Source of the DNA: Syntrophales bacterium
Lineage (GTDB): Bacteria; Desulfobacterota; Syntrophia; Syntrophales; UBA2210
Assembly: GCA_023230565.1 (NCBI GenBank)
Contig: JALNXD010000002.1
Span: forward strand, 16,366 to 80,365
Direction of reading: 5' to 3'
Length of the DNA stretch: 64,000 nucleotides
Part shown: positions 2,684 through 59,685 of the stretch, piece after piece
Layout of the letters: each line of letters starts with the position of its first letter
Numbering within the stretch: position 1 is the stretch's first letter
Notes under the pieces: generated by a model
Database searches by the model: none
Seen by the model: only the letters and a program-made list of their open reading frames with translations
What the model was told of the DNA's origin: nothing
Program-made: the position numbers and the translations under genes

Positions 2684-4042
2684 TTACCGGTTTCCGGTTT
2701 TTTTCAATATTGCCCCAAAAAATCCGTCGGCGCCATGGCGGTGGGGCAAAGTCCTGAAAAATCCTCCTGAATCGATCGTATCAGGGCGGGGAAATTCACG
2801 TGGTGTGCAAAGAGACAGGGAAGAATCCCGGGCCAGTACACAATCTATCAATTCTTCATTTTCTTCCGGTTCCGTCGTACAGGTTGCATATACCATTGTT
2901 CCTCCACTTTTAAGATAGAGTGAACAATTTTTCAAAAGCGCTCCCTGAATTTTTGCATAGTGCATACTGTCGCCCTCATTTGCAAACCATTTTATTTCAG
3001 GTTTTCTCCTCAGTGTTCCCAGACCGGTACAGGGCGCATCTACAAGAATTCTGTCGAATCGTCCATAAAATGCGTTTCCGAAATCCTTTTCTCCGTCAGC
3101 AGCAATTCTTTCGATAATTCCTATTCCGAACCTCTGTGCAAGTTCCGCCCCCTGCGCAAGTCTGGCTGAATTCTTGTCTACGGCCAAAATGGAACCTTGA
3201 TTTTTCATAAGTGCGCCTATATGGGTCGACTTGATGCCGGATCCCGCACACATATCAAGCACTGTCTCGTCCGGCCCGGGATTGAGGAGGTATGAAACAA
3301 GCTGCGATGCTTCATCCTGGAATTGAAAAAAACCCTGAATATACAGTGGAGATTCCGCTAACGGATAGGGATGGTGATCAACCAAGACAGCATCCGGAGA
3401 AAGGGGTGACGGTCTTGGATGGAACCCTTCTTTTGACAGCTCGCACATCAGTTTTTCCCGAGTTGTTCTCATGAGATTGGCTCGGACAGCCAGCGGGGGT
3501 ATCCGGTTATTCGCCTCGCATATTTCAAGAGTCTCATCGATACCGAAATATTCAGCCCACCGGGCGACAAGCCAGTGAGGATGTGAATGAAAAGAAGCAA
3601 TGAATTCAACCGGATTTTGACAATACCCGGGATAGACAATTTCCTTTTTCCTTCTGGCTGAATTCCTTAAAATCGCATTTACAAGGCCTTCCCTGCCGGG
3701 ATACATACTTTTAGTGAATTGAACCGCTTCATTAACGGCCGCATACCCGGGTATTTTATCCATACAGAACATCTGATAAAGCGCTACTCGCAATATATTT
3801 CGGATCCCGTCTTCCATTTTCTGAAAATTACCGCTGTAAAAATATGTGATTATGAAATCCAGGCGATTTTTCAGCCTGAGAGTACCATATACCAATTCAT
3901 TGAGCAGCCTTTTATCCTCCGTTTTTTCATAGCGAACTTTCAAAAAAACCTTGTTTATAAGAGGTTCGGCATAAAAGTGATCCCTTTCCACCATGTTCAA
4001 AATTTCTACGGCATTGCTTCGAGGATTTCTGTATTTAATCAT
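2684..4042 (-). CDS. rsmB: 16S rRNA (cytosine-C5)-methyltransferase RsmB/Sun
   Basis: N-terminal NusB-like region plus a SAM methyltransferase core (VLDMCAGSGIKS, DAPCTGLGTLRRKPE, YATCT). It lies downstream of fmt, as in the conserved fmt-rsmB arrangement. Confidence 0.9.
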   Translation of the reverse strand: MIKYRNPRSNAVEILNMVERDHFYAEPLINKVFLKVRYEKTEDKRLLNELVYGTLRLKNRLDFIITYFYSGNFQKMEDGIRNILRVALYQMFCMDKIPGYAAVNEAVQFTKSMYPGREGLVNAILRNSARRKKEIVYPGYCQNPVEFIASFHSHPHWLVARWAEYFGIDETLEICEANNRIPPLAVRANLMRTTREKLMCELSKEGFHPRPSPLSPDAVLVDHHPYPLAESPLYIQGFFQFQDEASQLVSYLLNPGPDETVLDMCAGSGIKSTHIGALMKNQGSILAVDKNSARLAQGAELAQRFGIGIIERIAADGEKDFGNAFYGRFDRILVDAPCTGLGTLRRKPEIKWFANEGDSMHYAKIQGALLKNCSLYLKSGGTMVYATCTTEPEENEELIDCVLARDSSLSLCTPREFPRPDTIDSGGFFRTLPHRHGADGFFGAILKKTGNR

Positions 4043-12766: not shown

Positions 12767-13023
12767 CTTCTACCTCCATTTTTCTTATTTATCTATTCCG
12801 CTTCGGTGAAACACCTGCCTTTTTTTCGCCCTAAACCCGTTGCTATATAATGTGCCAACCATTCTCTGTCAAGGAAAAACTTCCCCAAAAAACACTTGAC
12901 ATTGCTGGGTTAAGGTGCTACTTGTCCATCAAATAACGTTCTACGGCGTGGTATGTCCGGGATCGAGGGAAGGGGGTGAAAAAAGAGAAGTCCAGTCAAA
13001 CGTCATATAAATTCGGTTTACAA

Positions 13024-13059
13024 TTCAAAGGTTTAAAGCAGAATACATCTTTTAGGAGG
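13024..13059 (+). promoter_or_regulatory. putative sRNA-pairing site spanning the leader and Shine-Dalgarno of the porin-like gene
   Basis: TTCAAAGGTTTAAAGCAGAA (13024-13043) and TAGGAGG (13053-13059) recur at 36632-36651 and 36654-36660, where the opposite strand is predicted to be transcribed. Confidence 0.4.
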
Positions 13060-13067
13060 AAAGATAT

Positions 13068-14420
13068 ATGAAACGTTTGTTAGTAGCTCTGCTCGCGCTG
13101 GGCCTCATATGCGCATTTGCAATGCCCGCAGGCGCGACTGATATCAAGTTTAACGGCCTTTATTATGTCGAGGGATGGTACAGCGCCAATCCCCGGCTGG
13201 AAGAAGATAACTCGTCAAGCGCCTGGTACAACCAGCGCATGAGAATCAATACGGTATTTCAGGTGAGCACGGGCCTCAGCCTTACCACCCGCTTCGATGT
13301 CATGGAAGGTGCGTGGAAGGGCGCGAATTCCGTCTATGACAAAAACGGCAATGTCTATGCCGATAGCTTTGCAAACAATGCACTGGCCGAATCCGATATC
13401 GATTTCGATTTTCTCTATCTGAGCTTCAACACCAAATGCGGCGCAATTCATGTAGGTCAGATGTCCGACAGTATTTTCGGAACCCCCTTCGGCAACGGCG
13501 AGATCTCCCTTCCCAAGATCGGCTGGAACCTGCCTTTCGGAGGCGGAAAGTTCCTTAACGTATTCCAGCTCAAAAAATATGACGATTCGGAATACATCAA
13601 TGCAAAGAATAATGTAAGGTACGAGTCGGACGCTCAGATGGCAGGCTACATGGACATCATCTTCTACTTCGACAAGACCACCGAAGCGGCGTTCCTGTAT
13701 CAGTACACCCCCAGCTCAGCCGCATCCGGCATTGCGGCGGCCCTTGGACCAAACAAGAGCTATTCGCATACAATTCTTCCTTACATCAAGAAGACCCTCG
13801 GCAGCTTCTATATCGAAGCCGAGTTGAAGTGGACGAAGGGCGAAGTGGAATACGAAGACGAGGCGATCGCATTGGGCTTTACCGATACCGATACATCTGG
13901 CTTGAGCTTCTTCCTTCATGGCAAGCAGACGATCGGCGCCGGCTATCTGGGCGCAATGTTCGCCTATTCCCAGGGTAACGATATCACGACCCCCGATGAA
14001 AACGAAGGCGGAGCGACCGGCGGATATGAGTGGGATCCCTGTCTGATACTCTGGAACCACGACTATGCCGACTGGGGCACCAACGCGGGACTGGGAACAG
14101 CCGCGGGACTCAAAACGGGCCGCGAGATGGGTAATGCACTCTTCTATCAGGTCTATGGCGGCTTCAAACCTATGAAGGCTCTGGAACTCTTTACGTCCAT
14201 ATCCTATGCCACTGCCGACGAGGATGTGGTACTCAATCAGGTTGATGATGACTACGGCGTCGAGTTTGACGTAAAGGCCACCTACAAGCTGTTCGATAAC
14301 CTCGAATACATGGTAGGCTTCGGCTATTTCTGGGCAGGAGACTACTACAAAGGTGCGGATCCCACTCTGGAGATCGACAACGACTACCTGCTCATCCACA
14401 AGCTGACCTTGAAGTTCTAA
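13068..14420 (+). CDS. outer-membrane beta-barrel porin-like protein
   Basis: Signal peptide MKRLLVALLALGLICAFAMPAGA. The composition is aromatic- and Gly-rich with alternating residues. The C-terminus ...HKLTLKF ends in Phe. Strong RBS (AGGAGG) and strong terminator. No family assignment is possible by eye. Confidence 0.6.
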   Translation: MKRLLVALLALGLICAFAMPAGATDIKFNGLYYVEGWYSANPRLEEDNSSSAWYNQRMRINTVFQVSTGLSLTTRFDVMEGAWKGANSVYDKNGNVYADSFANNALAESDIDFDFLYLSFNTKCGAIHVGQMSDSIFGTPFGNGEISLPKIGWNLPFGGGKFLNVFQLKKYDDSEYINAKNNVRYESDAQMAGYMDIIFYFDKTTEAAFLYQYTPSSAASGIAAALGPNKSYSHTILPYIKKTLGSFYIEAELKWTKGEVEYEDEAIALGFTDTDTSGLSFFLHGKQTIGAGYLGAMFAYSQGNDITTPDENEGGATGGYEWDPCLILWNHDYADWGTNAGLGTAAGLKTGREMGNALFYQVYGGFKPMKALELFTSISYATADEDVVLNQVDDDYGVEFDVKATYKLFDNLEYMVGFGYFWAGDYYKGADPTLEIDNDYLLIHKLTLKF

Positions 14421-24048: not shown

Positions 24049-24912
24049 TTACAAATGAGAGTTGAGGTGTCGGATTTTTTTTAATAAACGGGTTACAATT
24101 CCGGTTTGTTTCGCATTACTGCAGTGCCGACATAGAATATCTGCAGAATCGTCGCTTAATCCTTCTATAACTTTATTATAGGAATCATTATTAAATAATG
24201 AATTGTAATCCTCCGAAATCAAATTACCCAGGATATGCCGCATTCCGTAATCCATGCAACACAGGATGACATCCCCATTTGGCAGCAACACATTGTGATT
24301 TAACAAACGGCTGCAACTTTTACACACAATTTTTCCTGTCAGATATATACAGTGATTGACCTTTCCGATATCGCCGATGTTCCCTGCCCGGTTAATACAT
24401 TCATCTTCCCTGATATCCGCCGCAGATAAAAGCTTTTTGATTTCCTCATGGACTCCTCCGATACTCATATAGCGTAAGCCGCTTATACTGCTCTCGGAAA
24501 TCCTGCCAAGTCTTTTCAGATACTCTTCATCTACTTTTATAGCTGTATAATTTTTATTATCGGGCAAATGGATTTCAAATATCCGGAAGGGGATATGTTT
24601 GATGGCATCTATATCCGCCAATGACATGCCTGTGGTAGTTGTATATACCGAAATTTCAAATCCGCATTCATAGGCATGTAAAATCATTTGTGTACAATTC
24701 GGATTGAGCCATGGCTCCGCCATTCCGGAAAAATGGATATGAACCTGCGGCGGTATCTTATCCAGACATACCTTGAACGTTTCGAAAGACATGCATACTA
24801 TGTTACTTTTTTTGATATAAGCCCTTATAAATATATCCTGCGGACAGTATACACACCTGTTTCTGCACCCGATCACTGTGGTTATTTCCATGGTTCCCGC
24901 TACGGCCACCAT
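24049..24912 (-). CDS. radical SAM enzyme with C-terminal Cys-rich (SPASM/twitch-like) domain
   Basis: CRNRCVYC (CxxxCxxC) near the N-terminus. C-terminal CKSC...LCCMDYG...CRHC cluster. Confidence 0.78.
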   Translation of the reverse strand: MVAVAGTMEITTVIGCRNRCVYCPQDIFIRAYIKKSNIVCMSFETFKVCLDKIPPQVHIHFSGMAEPWLNPNCTQMILHAYECGFEISVYTTTTGMSLADIDAIKHIPFRIFEIHLPDNKNYTAIKVDEEYLKRLGRISESSISGLRYMSIGGVHEEIKKLLSAADIREDECINRAGNIGDIGKVNHCIYLTGKIVCKSCSRLLNHNVLLPNGDVILCCMDYGMRHILGNLISEDYNSLFNNDSYNKVIEGLSDDSADILCRHCSNAKQTGIVTRLLKKIRHLNSHL

Positions 24913-24930: not shown

Positions 24931-25728
24931 TTACTTCCTTAAACCTTTTTTACAAAAAAAGGGGATATTTTCCCTGTTAAGATACTCAATATTCGCCCCC
25001 TCTCTCCAATGCCTGTTTCCCAATTCCTTCGGATGCCACAAATGGAGTACCTTTGCAGAAGGTATGATCGAACGGCCTCGAAATCCGGCTTTTATGAAAC
25101 GCAACGCCAAATCCTCATCCTCGCCACCCCAGCCTATAAAATTTTCATCGTACCCGTTCACAAATTCCATGTCTTTTCGATGTACGGAGAAATGGCTGCT
25201 GCATTTTTGTTTTCTCGGATTAACTGCCCTGAATCTCATCAGAATGCCATATTTTATGAAATTAAAATGTTCTCTCGTCACAGGTTTCTCCGGCAACTCG
25301 TGATAAAGATTTTCGAGCAACTCCTTTGAAATTTCTTCATGCAATATTCTCTTTGCCTGTTCCTGAGTAGTATATTTACAAAGCCCGGCAATGAATTTCC
25401 CCGGCTTGGCCGCTTTTACGTGGCACTCGATCGTGCCGGGCAATACCAGAAAATCACAATCCAAAAAAATCAAATACTCTCCGGCAGCTTTACGAATACC
25501 GTTATTGCGGGCAAGTGCAAGCCTGAATCCGTTTTTTGGCTGCCATACATGTGTTATCGGAAACTCATACGCCGGGATGAGATCTTGTAATCTATTGACA
25601 GTCTCAGTACCTGAACCATCATCGGCAATAATGACTTCATCGAAATTGCCTCTGCAAAGCCTGAGAGAATCAAGACAGCACCGTAAATAATCCAGCCGTT
25701 CATAAAAGGATATTATTATGCTCACCAT
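24931..25728 (-). CDS. family 2 glycosyltransferase
   Basis: VSIIISFYERLDYL...IIADDGS...LDCDF (DxD) and GWGGEDEDLALR, typical GT2 / GT-A motifs. Confidence 0.85.
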   Translation of the reverse strand: MVSIIISFYERLDYLRCCLDSLRLCRGNFDEVIIADDGSGTETVNRLQDLIPAYEFPITHVWQPKNGFRLALARNNGIRKAAGEYLIFLDCDFLVLPGTIECHVKAAKPGKFIAGLCKYTTQEQAKRILHEEISKELLENLYHELPEKPVTREHFNFIKYGILMRFRAVNPRKQKCSSHFSVHRKDMEFVNGYDENFIGWGGEDEDLALRFIKAGFRGRSIIPSAKVLHLWHPKELGNRHWREGANIEYLNRENIPFFCKKGLRK

Positions 25729-35284: not shown

Positions 35285-35298
35285 TAATACTCCTCTTT

Positions 35299-36339
35299 TT
35301 AAACCTCCGTCACTCTCGATAGGTATTCAGCCTTAAGGTGTCGATACATATTCATAAGAGCATTATTTGAGACTACGGCAAAGGACGTACTTACCATGAT
35401 TTTCTTTACTTCATTTCGGCTTATTTTTATTTTATGGCCGTCAAGCAGATCTTCATTCTGCTCATTAAGCTTTATCAAGGTCTTAATAGCCATAAATAAG
35501 GGCCAAAGGCAAAAAAGGCGGTATCTTACGCATGCTCTTGGAATATCCAGGGTATAGAATAATGCCTCGTCAAGATTTTCAAGAGCCAAATTCGTGAGAC
35601 GTTTGAAAATCCTCATGCATACTACCCGGTTTGATTTGATTTCATTTAAGTTTAGTGTTATTCCTTCCGCTTCAAAATAACTCTTTGGTACATAACACCA
35701 TCCCCGTCTTAAATCCGGGAAGAAATCTTTTGAAATATTCGTAAGCTGAAGCCCAATTCCAAACTTCACACTTCGTGATATCAATCTTTCTTCTATTTTT
35801 TCAGTAATGCGCGGCGCACCTTTGGAAAAAATCGATGTAATCATCAGCCCGACTGTTCCTGCCACATAATAGCAATAATGCTTCAGCTCCTCTTCCGTAT
35901 TCAGACATACAATGCTTCCTTCAGATGTTTTTTTCTGAAAATCAGCCATTCCGAGAGCCATTTCCTTCACATATTCCGATATAATATCTACATACCCAAC
36001 GGGCAGATCAAGAAGCTCCCTGAAGACGCGCGGCATATCACCTACAAGGACCGAATCATCGCAGACAGTACCGAAAGATACACTCTCCACAAAACTTCGA
36101 GTACGGGCATCCCACCCGGAGGACGGTGGGAAAAGACCGGCAAATGTGTTGAGATGCCCGATCTTTTTTTCTGCGGGTAATAATGGATCGTCTTCAAGGG
36201 TATCTGCAATTCGGCATAAAAGATATGCGATAAGAAGCGCCCGGTATACATCGCCTCTGAGAACCTGAATATTGATTGCAAATGTTCTTGAAACCTTAGC
36301 AAGGTGTTGTTCACATATTTTCAAGTCGTCGCCCTTCAT
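35299..36339 (-). CDS. squalene/phytoene synthase family protein
   Basis: VSRTFAINIQVL...CRIADTLEDD (first Asp-rich motif) and YCYYVAGTVG, typical of trans-isoprenyl diphosphate synthase head-to-head enzymes. Confidence 0.75.
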   Translation of the reverse strand: MKGDDLKICEQHLAKVSRTFAINIQVLRGDVYRALLIAYLLCRIADTLEDDPLLPAEKKIGHLNTFAGLFPPSSGWDARTRSFVESVSFGTVCDDSVLVGDMPRVFRELLDLPVGYVDIISEYVKEMALGMADFQKKTSEGSIVCLNTEEELKHYCYYVAGTVGLMITSIFSKGAPRITEKIEERLISRSVKFGIGLQLTNISKDFFPDLRRGWCYVPKSYFEAEGITLNLNEIKSNRVVCMRIFKRLTNLALENLDEALFYTLDIPRACVRYRLFCLWPLFMAIKTLIKLNEQNEDLLDGHKIKISRNEVKKIMVSTSFAVVSNNALMNMYRHLKAEYLSRVTEV

Positions 36340-36461: not shown

Positions 36462-36492
36462 CAAAAAGAAAGGGAGGCTTTAAAAGCCTCCC
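36462..36492 (-). terminator. intrinsic terminator ending the candidate sRNA
   Basis: Minus strand reads GGGAGGCTT-tta-AAGCCTCCC followed by TTTCTTTTTGT. No U-tract follows on the plus strand, so it is oriented for minus-strand transcripts. Confidence 0.78.
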
Positions 36493-36675
36493 TTACAAGG
36501 GGGGTTACCAACCAATGTTTTAACCCGTATCGGATAAACCGAACTTTCAACTGGTTGATTTAACTCAAATATTACCCTCGCACTCTCATTCCACTCACTG
36601 CACCATCCGAGGGTTTTAAACAATCGGTCGGTTCAAAGGTTTAAACCAGAAAATAGGAGGGATTTTCCGGTTCGA
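36462..36675 (-). ncRNA. candidate sigma54-dependent small RNA (~210 nt), unclassified
   Basis: It is bounded by the sigma54 promoter (36686-36701) and the terminator (36462-36492). No minus-strand ORF is present. A 5' hairpin AACCGGAAAAU[CCCUCCU]AUUUUCUGGUU lies at 36644-36672. Internal stems are ACCCUCG/CGAGGGU, GAACCGA/UCGGUU and GGGUUA/UAACCC. It is antisense to the porin leader at 13024-13059. Confidence 0.5.
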
Positions 36676-36685
36676 TATTGTCTAA

Positions 36686-36701
36686 AGCATTATTTATGCC
36701 A
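36686..36701 (-). promoter_or_regulatory. sigma54 (-24/-12) promoter
   Basis: Minus strand reads TGGCAT-AAATA-ATGCT against the consensus TGGCAC-N5-TTGCW. The canonical GG-N10-GC spacing is preserved. Confidence 0.55.
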
Positions 36702-36859
36702 AAATGCAATTTTATCCAAGTTATCCTAATGTCTTCAGAATCTCCGGCCCCGCATAAAAGATTATTTCTTCACAAGGAAAAAAATGTCGAGACGGATCTG
36801 ATTCAGTGTAATATCAGTAATAATTTCAATGTGTATCGGTTTGTCATATTTTTCACCCA

Positions 36860-36877
36860 TTCGACAAAATTGTCGAA
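36860..36877. promoter_or_regulatory. perfect 18-bp palindrome, candidate enhancer/operator site
   Basis: TTCGACAA-AA-TTGTCGAA. It is centred about 190 bp upstream of the predicted sigma54 start and about 260 bp upstream of the divergent kinase gene. An extra TGTCGA half-site lies at 36785-36790. Confidence 0.4.
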
Positions 36878-37129
36878 ATTCGTTTCCGGACTCACATTTT
36901 CCGTTTAACATAATTTCTTGTATTCAAAGGAACAGTGCGATATGTTGGCTCAAAAAGACTGAATATGTCAAGCAGTTAAATACTTGGCATATACCGTTTC
37001 CGATCTGCCGGATACCGGAAATTATATGTACGTTTCATGAGAGCTTCTGAATTCAATGTTTCTCGTTTTTAAAAGATCGGCGTACCTATACCGGGAACAA
37101 GGAATTAAAAAGTTGAATCTGAGGTGATA

Positions 37130-38899
37130 ATGGAGCGAACAAAGCTTTCAAAATACATCATGCCCCTTACATTGTTTTTGGTGGTTGCAGTATTCATTGT
37201 GCTTATTTTGATCATGGGCTTCATGGATCTGCGAAGGCTTGACAGTACGCTGGTTGGATTCATGCAAAACAGAGGGCTTGACATAGTAAAAACAATTGAA
37301 AACGTGGCACAGGAAGATCTTGATTTTCTCCGTCTCACTCTTAAGGAGAACAGGAGCGAGCGCAGAATTTCGCCTATTCCTCTCTCGGATAAGGAATTTT
37401 CGATACAGGAATCCCTTGTAAAGGCCCTGGTTGACGTGGCGCGGGCAATTGACCTTAAATGGCACCAAAAAGATCTTTCGGAACAATCCCTTAAAGAAAT
37501 TGCTGCACTGGAAAAGTTGTCAATAATAGCAATATTTGATGAGCAGGGAGAAATTGTTCTTCAGAATAGAAAGTTCGATGAATCTTTCGCGGAAAAATCG
37601 GATTCAATGAAATCGGCTCAGGAAAAGATCATGATCGATCTTTTTGACCGTTTGGGGAATCTCGGTGAAATGGGCTATATTGCCCTTAAAAGGAAAGACG
37701 GCAGCGGAACCATTCTGATTGCACTTGATGCAGAGAAACTTAAATACTGGGGAACAAAAATAGCTGTTATCAAAGTAATAGAAGAAATAGGATGGGAGCA
37801 GGAGCTCGCCTATTTAACTGTCGCAGATAATGATGGGAAAGTGCTCGGCACTGTAGGGAAATTACCACAAGAACACCAAGAACGATCACGTATTGTGACT
37901 GATGAGATACTGTCGGGGCGGCTTGATATATTAAGCCGCAAACTAAGACATAAGGATGCGGATTTTCTTGATATCATCGCTCCGCTTCATCTCGATAGCT
38001 CTGTTATAGGGTATGCGCGTTTAGGTTTAAAGTGGGATCGGGCCCGGGCAATACTTGCAGAAAACAGAAACAGAATGATAATCAGCACAATTCTGATTAT
38101 ATTGATCGGAATTATGTCAATTACAGCCCTTTATCAAAATCAAAGCAGACATTTGGCAAGAATGGATGAAATGGAAAAGAAGCTCCGTCGAGCTGAGAGA
38201 CTTTCCGCGCTTGGCCAGCTTGCTGCCGGTGTAGCCCACGAGATCAGGAATCCCCTAAATGCCGTAAGCATTGCGAGTCAGAGACTACAGAGAGAATATG
38301 CCCCCGCAAATGAAGAGGAAAAGAAAGAATTCTACCGTATAACTGGCATTATTCGTGAAGAAATCAGGCGTCTCAACAATATTATCGAAGAGTTTGTAAC
38401 TTTTTTCCGGATAAGGAAAATGGAACTGAAGAGCCATCCCCTTGAGGAAGTCATATTGAAAATAGCAAATCTAGTAGAAGGGGAATTTAAATCCAGGAAT
38501 ATTGACTTGAAAACATATCTGAACGGTCATAATTTGCGAGTAATGATGGATTCTGATAAATTGACGCAGGCCTTCCATAATTTACTAAAAAATGCGATGG
38601 AATCGATACCCGCATCAGGCATAATTTCCATTTCCGTGGATCCTGTCAATGGCGACCGGCTGGCAGTGAGAATTTCCGATACCGGGACAGGGCTGACGGA
38701 AGAAGAAATTGAACAGATATTCAATCCCGAATATACCACCAAAGAAAAAGGTCTCGGTTTGGGTCTGACGCTTGCACATGAAATTATTCAAAGTCATAAA
38801 GGCGAAATATCCGTGACAAGCCGAAAAGGTTCGGGAACGACATTTGAGATCATCTTACCCAGAGATCATGAAGATTCGAAAGAATTTCAGGAAAGTTAA
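37130..38899 (+). CDS. sensor histidine kinase (two TM helices flanking a ~280-aa extracytoplasmic domain; HisKA + HATPase_c)
   Basis: TM1 LTLFLVVAVFIVLILIMGF and TM2 MIISTILIILIGIMSITALY. H-box AAGVAHEIRNPLNAV. N and G boxes (NLLKNAMES, DTGTGL, GLGLGL). The ATG at 37130 with upstream GAGG is preferred over the GTG at 37124. Confidence 0.88.
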   Translation: MERTKLSKYIMPLTLFLVVAVFIVLILIMGFMDLRRLDSTLVGFMQNRGLDIVKTIENVAQEDLDFLRLTLKENRSERRISPIPLSDKEFSIQESLVKALVDVARAIDLKWHQKDLSEQSLKEIAALEKLSIIAIFDEQGEIVLQNRKFDESFAEKSDSMKSAQEKIMIDLFDRLGNLGEMGYIALKRKDGSGTILIALDAEKLKYWGTKIAVIKVIEEIGWEQELAYLTVADNDGKVLGTVGKLPQEHQERSRIVTDEILSGRLDILSRKLRHKDADFLDIIAPLHLDSSVIGYARLGLKWDRARAILAENRNRMIISTILIILIGIMSITALYQNQSRHLARMDEMEKKLRRAERLSALGQLAAGVAHEIRNPLNAVSIASQRLQREYAPANEEEKKEFYRITGIIREEIRRLNNIIEEFVTFFRIRKMELKSHPLEEVILKIANLVEGEFKSRNIDLKTYLNGHNLRVMMDSDKLTQAFHNLLKNAMESIPASGIISISVDPVNGDRLAVRISDTGTGLTEEEIEQIFNPEYTTKEKGLGLGLTLAHEIIQSHKGEISVTSRKGSGTTFEIILPRDHEDSKEFQES

Positions 38900-38901
38900 C
38901 C

Positions 38902-40263
38902 ATGAAATCATTGAATATACTTGTCGTCGAAGATGGGCAATCGCAAAGGGAAATGCTTAGAGATTTCCTTGTGAAGGAGGGTCATCTTATACGCGAAGCT
39001 GATACAGGCACCAAGGCTTTACAGGAAGTTCTTGAAGGACATTTCGATTTGGTTCTTCTCGATTACAAAATGCCTGGAATGAATGGACTCGAAACGCTGA
39101 AGAAAATCAGGGAAATAAACCCCGAAATCGATATTGTTATGATGACGGCCTACGGAACGATTGAAACAGCCGTGGAAGCAATGAAGAACGGTGCCGTCGA
39201 CTACATAACCAAACCGATAGACCTGGATGAACTTATCATTTTGATAGACAGGATCTCGGAGCGCCGCATACTTATAAAAGAAAACGAGATCCTCCGGCAC
39301 AAGCTCTGGAAAAAAGGTATGAAAAGTTCACAGATAATTTACCAGAGCTCAAAAATGGAACAACTTATCAATATGGCAGGCCGAGTTGCCGACAGTAAAG
39401 CAACTGTTCTTATTGAAGGAGAAAGCGGCACCGGAAAAGAACTTTTCGCCCGCCTTATTCACACTATGAGTCCCCGGTCCGAGAATCCCATGATGGTAGT
39501 TAATTGCGGCGCTCTTCCTGAAACGCTGCTTGAAAGCGAACTTTTTGGACATGAGAAAGGCGCCTTTACCGGCGCTACGGGCAGAAGAATCGGACGGTTT
39601 GAAGAAGCTGACGGAGGAACCCTTTTTCTGGATGAAATTGGAGAGCTTTCTTCCCCGGTTCAGGTCAAATTGTTAAGATTTCTCCAGGAAAAAGAATTTC
39701 AGAGACTTGGAGGCAATCAGACACTTAAATCGGATGTAAGAATTATCAGTGCCACGAATCGCAATCTCGAAGAGCAGATGAGAAGGGGACTTTTCAGAGA
39801 TGACCTTTATTATCGGTTGAATGTAGTGGTAATGAAAATTCCACCGCTCCGGGAAAGAAAAGAAGATATTCCTCTTTTAATTCAGCATTTTATAAATGTA
39901 TTTGCCCTCGAAAACAAGAAGGACATTAAAGGTGCAAGCCGGGAGGCACTCGATATGCTGTTGAAGTATGAATATCCTGGCAATGTGAGGGAGCTGGAAA
40001 ATATTATCGAAAGAGCTGCAGTCATCACGAGAGATTCTGTGATTTCAATCCGTGATCTTCCTTTCAGAGACGAATCCGATCATGGTATGGGCGAATCAAA
40101 AAGACATGGCAGCCTTATGAAAGATTCCGTTGAAACACTGGAATGTCAACTGATTGAACAAGCCCTTGGAGAAGCGGGTCAAAACCAGACAAAGGCAGCC
40201 GACCTTCTCGGAATCACGGAAAGAACCCTTCGATACAAGATAAAAAAATACGGACTGAAATAA
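38902..40263 (+). CDS. sigma54-dependent response regulator (NtrC-family bacterial enhancer-binding protein)
   Basis: REC domain ([13 protein letters not shown]). AAA+ domain with GESGTGKE, the sigma54-contacting GAFTGA loop, and DEIGEL. C-terminal Fis-type HTH ([24 protein letters not shown]). Confidence 0.93.
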
Positions 40264-59610: not shown

Positions 59611-59685
59611 TGGTAGGCGGTACTGGATTTGAACCAGTGACTTCTACCGTGTGAAGGTAGCACTCTCCCGCTGAGTTAACCGCCC
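59611..59685 (-). tRNA. tRNA-Val (anticodon CAC), CCA encoded
   Basis: Manual cloverleaf: acceptor GGGCGGU/ACCGCCU, D arm ACUC-AGCGGGA-GAGU, anticodon arm CUACC-UUCACAC-GGUAG, variable AAGUC, T arm ACUGG-UUCAAAU-CCAGU, discriminator A, CCA. 75 nt in total. Confidence 0.93.

Follow-up and report, generated by a model that had tools for sequence, protein, structure and literature searches.

The 64-kb stretch of a Syntrophales genome analyzed here (contig JALNXD010000002.1, positions 16,366 to 80,365; hereafter the window, to which the coordinates below refer) probably encodes a trans-acting small RNA (sRNA) that would pair with the leader of a porin-like mRNA and repress porin synthesis. This reading was proposed in an initial annotation of the same DNA, and the comparison with relatives lent it computational support at the level of sequence. 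The candidate sRNA gene of about 212 nucleotides (nt) is located on the minus strand at 36463–36676, 23.6 kb away from the porin-like gene, which occupies positions 13068–14420 of the plus strand. The analysis established the sequences of both sites, the architecture of the promoter and the activator site, the sRNA fold, the barrel fold of the target, the conservation of the two partners and the compensatory changes between them.

Complementarity between the candidate sRNA and the porin leader

The leader box TTCAAAGGTTTAAAGCAGAA at 13024–13043 of the plus strand, the core of the proposed target site, lies between 44 and 25 nt upstream of the porin ATG at 13068. Its near-copy TTCAAAGGTTTAAACCAGAA is present at 36632–36651, also on the plus strand. 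Both copies were found where the initial annotation had placed them, with the same distances between the box and the start codon, 14 contiguous identities, and the motif TAGGAGG on the 3' side of each copy (13053–13059 and 36654–36660). The identity of 20 out of 21 positions given earlier was a miscount: 19 of the 20 positions are identical, the single mismatch being G/C (13038 versus 36646), and the flanking bases differ on both sides (a at 13023 versus g at 36631, and t at 13044 versus a at 36652). The box and the Shine-Dalgarno (SD) motif are separated by 9 nt in the 13-kb copy and by 2 nt in the 36.6-kb copy.

The recurrence of a 14-mer in 64 kb is expected by chance, and the window includes 39 repeat families with 12-nt seeds, both of which speak for a chance repeat within A+T-rich intergenic sequence. 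However, when 400 dinucleotide shuffles of the 211-nt sRNA were compared with the 54 start regions of the window (from −60 to +10), none reached the score of 19/20. The shuffle maximum was 17, found in 4% of the shuffles, and the second-best real start region scored 16. Furthermore, the pattern GGTTTAA-N(5–35)-GGAGG is present at only two sites of the window, those at 13 and 36.6 kb, while 0.17 are expected by chance. The earlier argument that a match in two parts is unlikely to be accidental was thus borne out. As the match is also kept and co-varies in independent genomes, the probability of a chance repeat is close to negligible, and the comparative sequence data effectively refute it.

The predicted complementarity within the window covers 19/20 positions of the box and 7/7 of the SD motif, and the porin mRNA segment predicted to pair with the 5' region of the sRNA spans −56 to −8 (13012–13060, plus strand), including the SD. 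The interrupted pairing of 39–49 nt consists of the helices UCGGUU, UUCAAAGGUUUAAA-CAGAA and UAGGAGG, with a duplex-only energy of −41.3 kcal/mol. Three same-genome pairs, that of the window included, retain the anti-SD/SD helix and the linker/box helix in collinear order. The second pair is formed by the L004 sRNA and the L001 porin on contig k141_485875 of ERZ27252236 (duplex −34.4 kcal/mol), in which the kinase and the porin are 77 and 54% identical to those of the window, respectively. The third, L087 with L088, is from the metagenome-assembled genome (MAG) GCA_019313905.1 (duplex −30.1 kcal/mol; kinase 52% and porin 39% identical), where the sRNA and porin loci are situated on separate contigs.

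Between the window and GCA_019313905.1 the box of the leader changes from CAAAGG to ACAGGG and the sRNA from CCUUUG to CCCUGA, which amounts to two double changes, one from A-U to G-C and the other from A-U to C-G. A third double change is found at the flank of the SD, where UAGGAGG of the leader is replaced by CAGGAGG and CCUCCUA of the sRNA by CCUCCUG. The complementarity, the persistence of which in relatives with both loci had been named as a check of the proposal, is thus kept in the three same-genome pairs, with compensatory changes. Rare variants on unlinked contigs fit each other as well: the L092 sRNA GGUUGAAACC fits the L173 leader GGUUUUCAACC, and the L100/L182 sRNA CUCCUCCAACUUUUUCGGCUUAACCC fits the L169/L170 leader GGGUUAAGUCAAAAAAUUUGGAGGAG with 23/26 collinear positions. 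The latter pair, whose partners both occur in the Joint Genome Institute (JGI) sample 3300031111, matches also in CCUCCAAC/UUUGGAGG, which is otherwise unique. These unlinked matches are supportive and not independent, because the partners were chosen as the best matches.

An alternative explanation is that the 36.6-kb element derives from an inverted duplication of the porin leader and survives only as a relic, in which case the two copies would have ceased to interact and any RNA made would serve another role. The length of the collinear similarity (26–45 nt) favors such a history, since it exceeds a typical seed and includes spacer positions (23/26 in L100/L169). Unselected copies would, however, be expected to decay independently, whereas these sites change together in relatives whose proteins are only 37–54% identical, and no part of the sRNA is better conserved than the segments it shares with the leader. 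We consider a non-interacting relic quite improbable. The decayed duplicate mentioned as an alternative in the initial annotation may describe the origin of the element, but not its present state, as the sites co-vary and are conserved.

The candidate sRNA gene and its predicted sigma-54 promoter

The sRNA gene is supported by its fold, by the conservation of its locus and by profile matches, and its start, predicted at about 36675, was placed by the −12 element of the promoter. The predicted fold (−66.4 kcal/mol, z = −3.1) includes, in order, a 12-base-pair (bp) 5' hairpin with a 7-nt loop CCCUCCU, a 10-nt linker AAACCUUUGA, a long-range helix of AACCGACCGA with UUGGUUGGU that encloses the variable body of the sRNA, and a terminator. 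The hairpin, which is supported also by the conservation of its pairs, covers 36643–36673 of the minus strand, and its loop (36655–36661) is an anti-SD sequence. The single-stranded linker at 36633–36642 would provide the accessible seed core inside the 20-nt complement (36632–36651), half of which forms the 3' arm of the hairpin. Minimum free energy and centroid folds agreed in placing CCCUCCU in the 7-nt hairpin loop and in leaving AAACCUUUGA single-stranded, so that in the predicted folds both elements are exposed, as had been annotated. The intrinsic terminator at 36470–36494 (minus strand) has an 11-bp G+C-rich stem followed by a U run. The sRNA had no Rfam match at the gathering score; its best E-values, about 0.8–5, were to unrelated families, and Qrr was not matched either. 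The sole Rfam match at the gathering score in the window was a tRNA gene (59614–59685, minus strand).

The sigma-54 promoter TGGCAT-aaata-ATGC was found at 36687–36701 of the minus strand, and nearly all kinase loci have TGGCAC/T-N5-xTGC at the orthologous position. Divergently from the sRNA, the plus strand encodes a sensor histidine kinase (37130–38899; Pfam HisKA and HATPase_c) and a sigma-54-dependent response regulator of the NtrC class (38902–40263; Pfam Response_reg, Sigma54_activat and HTH_8), the presumed activator of the sRNA promoter. A protein identical to the kinase (100%) is encoded in a Syntrophales MAG. The nearest NCBIfam models are AtoS/ZraS for the kinase and AtoC/ZraR for the regulator, all with scores below the cut-off (204 versus 479 bits for ZraS and 451 versus 760 for ZraR; AtoS and AtoC scored higher, still below their cut-offs). 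The palindrome TTCGACAAAATTGTCGAA at 36860–36877, with a half-site TCGACA at 36785–36790, is likely the binding site of the adjacent regulator.

Orthologous kinase loci were collected from genomes and metagenomes, with the sensor domain alone as the metagenome query. The kinase scan of the genome collection was diluted by generic kinase motifs, and the sensor-domain scan of the metagenomes performed far better. In most loci the −24/−12 promoter (TGGCAY-N5-xTGC) is located 213–488 nt upstream of the orthologous kinase gene, and about 770–1000 nt upstream where a zraP-like gene intervenes. Each of the 32 loci checked has the palindrome TCGACA-N4-TGTCGA, at a distance of 145–214 nt on the upstream side of the promoter. 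About 30 Syntrophales loci include an RNA of the anti-SD type (type a), with the hairpin, the CCUCC loop and the linker CUUAAACCCUUG. In every type-a locus the palindrome is 167–191 nt from the promoter, and most of them have an additional half-site at about 80–95 nt.

In an alignment of 23 distinct homologues, the anti-SD loop and the linker were the best conserved transcribed columns, CUUAAACC being the most conserved transcribed block after the loop. The 5' hairpin was 88.7% paired across the homologues, with double changes in four of the nine pairs, and the alignment included approximately 25 G-U cells, the plus-strand equivalents of which would be A-C mismatches. The sRNA locus and its terminator are kept in L004, with a longer stem (GGGAGGCC/GGCCUCCC) and a different loop, and the terminator also in L089–L094 and L098. 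The genes downstream of the sRNA vary among the loci, and those read have sigma-70-like promoters of their own; the sRNA therefore appears to have a gene in its own right and not to be the leader of another one. A profile of the sRNA 5' domain matched 30 loci. In nhmmer searches it found all the sRNA loci and no antisense porin leaders, because of insertions and deletions between the box and the SD; the profile therefore did not connect the sRNA with the leader.

The minus strand had been predicted as the transcribed one, and the conserved sigma-54 promoter and palindrome, the covariation in the hairpin and the strand-specific G-U pairs all point to it. A reading of the 36.6-kb segment as the plus-strand leader of a protein gene was rejected: the 76-codon open reading frame (ORF) at 36678–36908 has no Pfam match, AGGAGG is not followed by a start codon in L013 and L087, and the zraP-like gene of L004 is missing from the window. 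No conserved plus-strand ORF was found at the sRNA locus among the relatives compared.

These observations bear also on the possibility that both sites are same-sense protein-binding sites, recognized by a DNA-binding regulator or by an RNA-binding protein on plus-strand transcripts. If both copies tracked one binding factor, co-variation of the motif within a genome would be expected as well. At 36.6 kb, however, there is no plus-strand promoter or conserved ORF while the minus-strand sigma-54 promoter is conserved, and the motif, which is in a transcribed region at both sites, is not equally far from the two promoters. At the DNA level no rationale for the SD/anti-SD part is obvious, and the unequal spacing of the box and the SD would be tolerated better by pairing than by a rigid site. 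Also a sigma-70-like promoter match overlapping the box (13017–13044) was discarded, as it is not conserved in L001. Protein binding at both sites is accordingly, in our judgment, a highly improbable explanation.

The RNAs upstream of the kinase were not uniform in the relatives. In one subfamily (L013, L087, L095–L111, L132 and L157) a second hairpin with the loop CCUCCU/UCUCCU follows about 60–100 nt after the start, and the long-range helix and the canonical terminator of the window version are lacking. More distant Syntrophales (L007–L011, L015, L019, L021, L047 and L113–L153) have the same divergent sigma-54 promoter and palindrome and a different RNA, type b, on the minus strand upstream of the kinase; it has a hairpin loop ACGGGCAUG followed by AAACCC and UCCUCCUGGA, in reversed order compared to type a. 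In L004 (3522–3962), L093, L094 and L012 the sRNA promoter is separated from the kinase by the gene of a ZraP/CpxP-like periplasmic protein (PF13801; weak match to NCBIfam ZraP). Such a gene was noted also for L154–L168, where a protein gene, and not an sRNA, seems to be transcribed from the divergent promoter. A tblastn search found no zraP-like gene in the window.

The porin leader as the proposed target

The target gene encodes a protein of 450 amino acids with a signal peptide. Its AlphaFold2 model (mean predicted local distance difference test score 86.7) is a beta-barrel of about 18 strands, and the best Foldseek matches in PDB were AlgE, the Campylobacter jejuni major outer membrane protein and OmpK36/OmpF, with E-values from 4e-16 to 1e-10; PorB was among the best matches as well. 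The N-terminus matches the NCBIfam model DESULF_POR1 weakly. The modeled fold thus points to a porin, with a predicted channel function. All homologues are from Syntrophales/Deltaproteobacteria and related MAGs, and hflX is located directly 3' of the porin gene in every orthologous locus examined. One candidate orthologue, P0041, was excluded after it proved to be a paralogue that does not adjoin hflX and lacks the box.

A likely sigma-70 promoter, read from the sequence at 12896–12924 (plus strand), consists of TTGACA, a 17-nt spacing and the extended −10 element TGcTACTTG; the arrangement TTGACA...TGnTAnnnT is present also in L001, L172, L088, L169 and L006. With the transcription start placed by this conserved promoter, the 5' untranslated region (UTR) is likely about 135 nt long. 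Three blocks of the leader survive in eight orthologues, the proteins of which are only 37–54% identical: a G-rich block, the RRGGTT(T)AA box and the SD. The G-rich block GAGGGAAGGGGGTGA (12965–12979, plus strand), which precedes the porin start by about 90 nt and is kept in the eight aligned leaders, could offer C-rich sRNA loops a second place to dock, or ribosomes a standby site. In each of the eight leaders the RRGGTT(T)AA box, conserved within TTCAAAGGTTTAAAGCAGAA, precedes the SD by 12–30 nt. Folding of the leader is predicted to place the porin SD (TAGGAGG, 13053–13059, plus strand) in the loop of a small AUCUUU/AAAGAU stem (13040–13066), which is present also in L001 and L172, the stems being weak in other leaders. 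Such an SD loop would allow loop-loop kissing with the anti-SD loop of the sRNA.

The proposed mechanism begins with the kinase sensing a signal, possibly envelope or metal stress, which is suggested because a ZraP-like gene is present in the same locus of relatives. The phosphorylated regulator would bind the upstream palindrome and activate the sigma-54 promoter, from which the trans-acting sRNA, with the 36.6-kb element as its 5' domain, would be transcribed on the minus strand. The sRNA loop CCCUCCUA would then pair with the porin SD (UAGGAGG) and the linker UUUAAACCUUUGAA, reaching into the 3' arm of the hairpin, with the leader box; contact between the loop and the SD would likely come first, followed by strand invasion through the linker. 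As the duplex from −56 to −8 would cover the SD, ribosome binding would be blocked and less porin synthesized when the two-component system is active. We infer here the transcription of the sRNA, its pairing in vivo, repression as the direction of control and the signal.

Thermodynamic predictions gave the porin a moderate standing within the window, the ranking covering the 54 start regions of this one 64-kb stretch and not the genome. When the 5' 60 nt of the sRNA were cofolded with each start region, the porin ranked first of the 54 by the free energy change of cofolding (ddG −16.4). Interaction prediction, suggested earlier as a check, gave a mixed picture, with this ranking in favor of the proposal and the results that follow against it.

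Several results weigh against the porin as the sRNA target. With the full-length sRNA the porin start region ranked fourth of the 54 (ddG −12.3). In the scan of short-window accessibility, an IntaRNA-like approach with 26-nt windows, it fell outside the top 12, because half of the complement is in the 3' arm of the hairpin and must open; a scan of this kind cannot model the opening of a hairpin combined with a two-part site. In GCA_019313905.1 the net ddG was −7.0, near the shuffled background of −5.7 ± 3.3. RNAduplex energies of long sequences are inflated and discriminate poorly. The securely same-genome pairs are three only, the other pairings being best-partner picks and partly circular, and the anti-SD loop could contact many mRNAs. 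In ERZ21831104 (ctg97431l), furthermore, the leader box is present (L006) and the orthologous kinase (L005) has no sRNA upstream: glyQS is directly upstream of the kinase, and no sigma-54 promoter, palindrome or sRNA was found at 3600–4010 of L005. The box of L006 (ACAAGGGTTTAAGC, 2940–3000) could pair with the consensus sRNA linker at almost every position, and the sRNA of this genome may have relocated or the box may have a further role.

Matches to the sRNA linker were found also in other leaders of the window. A 10-bp match, AAAAGGTTTAAGG, is located on the minus strand at 24937–24949, 25–37 nt upstream of a radical-SAM/SPASM gene (24049–24912), which makes this gene a possible secondary target of the putative sRNA. 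The leader of a 3D-domain (cell-wall) gene has a complement of the linker, GGAGGTTTAAA, at 35298–35309 (minus strand). This candidate was rejected as probably a chance match, being absent from the orthologous leader in L004.

The sRNA could be real without the porin being its main or only target, either as a general anti-SD regulator of several mRNAs or with the abundant porin leader acting as a sponge that titrates it. Any strong SD is a complement of the CCUCCU loop, the sRNAs with a second hairpin have two anti-SD loops, other start regions of the window reached a similar ddG with the full-length sRNA, and the linker match upstream of the radical-SAM/SPASM gene fits such broader pairing. 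On the other hand, the covariation of the linker and the box is specific to the porin leader across the lineages, the two-part site is present within the window at the porin only, and the linker match of the 3D-domain leader has no counterpart in L004. Broader targeting of these kinds is thus unlikely, and repression of the porin by direct pairing with its leader is the reading followed below.

Comparison with known regulatory RNAs

The closest parallel is MicF/ompF of the Enterobacteriaceae, likewise a trans-encoded antisense RNA with a conserved 5' part and an extended, imperfect pairing with the 5' UTR and ribosome binding site of a porin mRNA. Transcription of micF is under the control of the OmpR two-component system, and two-component control is common to both cases. 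Several MicF-like traits were found among the predicted features of the present sRNA: its own promoter and terminator, complementarity covering the SD, a co-varying seed and a porin target. In MicF the conserved 13-nt 5' end forms the core of the duplex, and Photorhabdus retains the target region of ompF in the absence of micF (PMC1489923). The latter is paralleled by L005/L006, with a box and no adjacent sRNA. The present sRNA differs from MicF in having no sequence or Rfam kinship with it, in having a sigma-54 promoter with an enhancer site instead of a sigma-70 promoter, in its pairing, which would begin in a hairpin loop and not at a free 5' end, and in the phylum in which it occurs (Syntrophales).

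MicA, RybB, MicC, OmrA/B, VrrA and CpxQ are envelope-stress sRNAs that are switched on by a stress-sensing regulator and mask the SD in the mRNA of an abundant outer membrane protein. MicA, for instance, shields the SD of ompA (PMC1489923). The regulatory logic proposed here is the same, but those sRNAs have sigma-E or sigma-70 promoters and seeds of 7–16 nt, whereas the present one has a sigma-54/NtrC-type promoter and a two-part complementarity of 26–45 nt.

In Vibrio, qrr1 has a −24/−12 promoter, and the gene of its NtrC-family activator, luxO, is immediately adjacent and divergent (PMC10162802). The same architecture was found here, with the −24 GG/−12 GC promoter, the activator site and the adjacent activator gene. 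GlmY, CrcZ and NrsZ are other sigma-54-dependent sRNAs. The targets of these and of Qrr1 differ from the one proposed here (quorum-sensing regulators, glmS, and titration of Hfq/Crc), and they have neither an anti-SD hairpin loop nor sequence similarity to the present sRNA.

In Desulfovibrio vulgaris, four noncoding RNAs (ncRNAs) were placed under two-component sigma-54 regulators encoded nearby, and the regulon of DVU1419 was labelled as an envelope stress response (PMC4641369). The regulon table of that paper labels the ncRNAs only as 'posttranscriptional regulation', no mRNA target is named in the passages searched, and the terms 'porin' and 'outer membrane' are absent from the text (PMC4641369). 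As described there, they have the same architecture in a related phylum. The ZraPSR system of envelope and zinc stress is similar in its sigma-54 two-component pair and divergent sigma-54 promoter. It differs in that the present kinase and regulator score far below the equivalog cut-offs of ZraS/ZraR and AtoS/AtoC, and in that the divergent promoter would here give an RNA and not zraP, a gene of that type being absent from the window. C/U-rich loops capture G-rich ribosome binding sites in RNAIII and RsaE of Staphylococcus aureus, RoxS of Bacillus subtilis and RepG of Helicobacter pylori. The anti-SD loop of the present sRNA resembles them, but they belong to Firmicutes or Epsilonproteobacteria, are controlled by other regulators and lack an adjacent collinear second seed.

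No described sRNA–target pair of Syntrophales was found in Rfam or in the literature searched. Novel features of the present case would be the lineage, the use of sigma-54 as input to an sRNA that targets a porin, and a collinear complementarity of unusual length. From the last of these arises a tentative idea, less probable than the regulatory pairing itself: the sRNA might have been born from the leader of its target, its 5' domain being an inverted copy kept collinear by co-evolution or repeated conversion, and might serve, throughout the class Syntrophia, as the RNA output of an envelope-stress system that is Zra-like and sigma-54-dependent. The long complementarity bears in this way on the origin of trans-acting sRNAs, and if the inverted-copy origin were true, it would be a case of a bacterial sRNA gene born from its target, as has been proposed for some plant microRNAs.

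The Syntrophales are syntrophs that are uncultured or hard to grow and lack genetics. For them the analysis outlines a putative circuit from kinase to sigma-54 regulator, sRNA and porin, conserved in dozens of environmental genomes. With this circuit, the rule that envelope-sensing systems use sRNAs to throttle porins would come to include a distant phylum and sigma-54 as the input. The circuit also suggests a role for the orphan sigma-54-dependent ncRNAs of Desulfovibrio-like bacteria.

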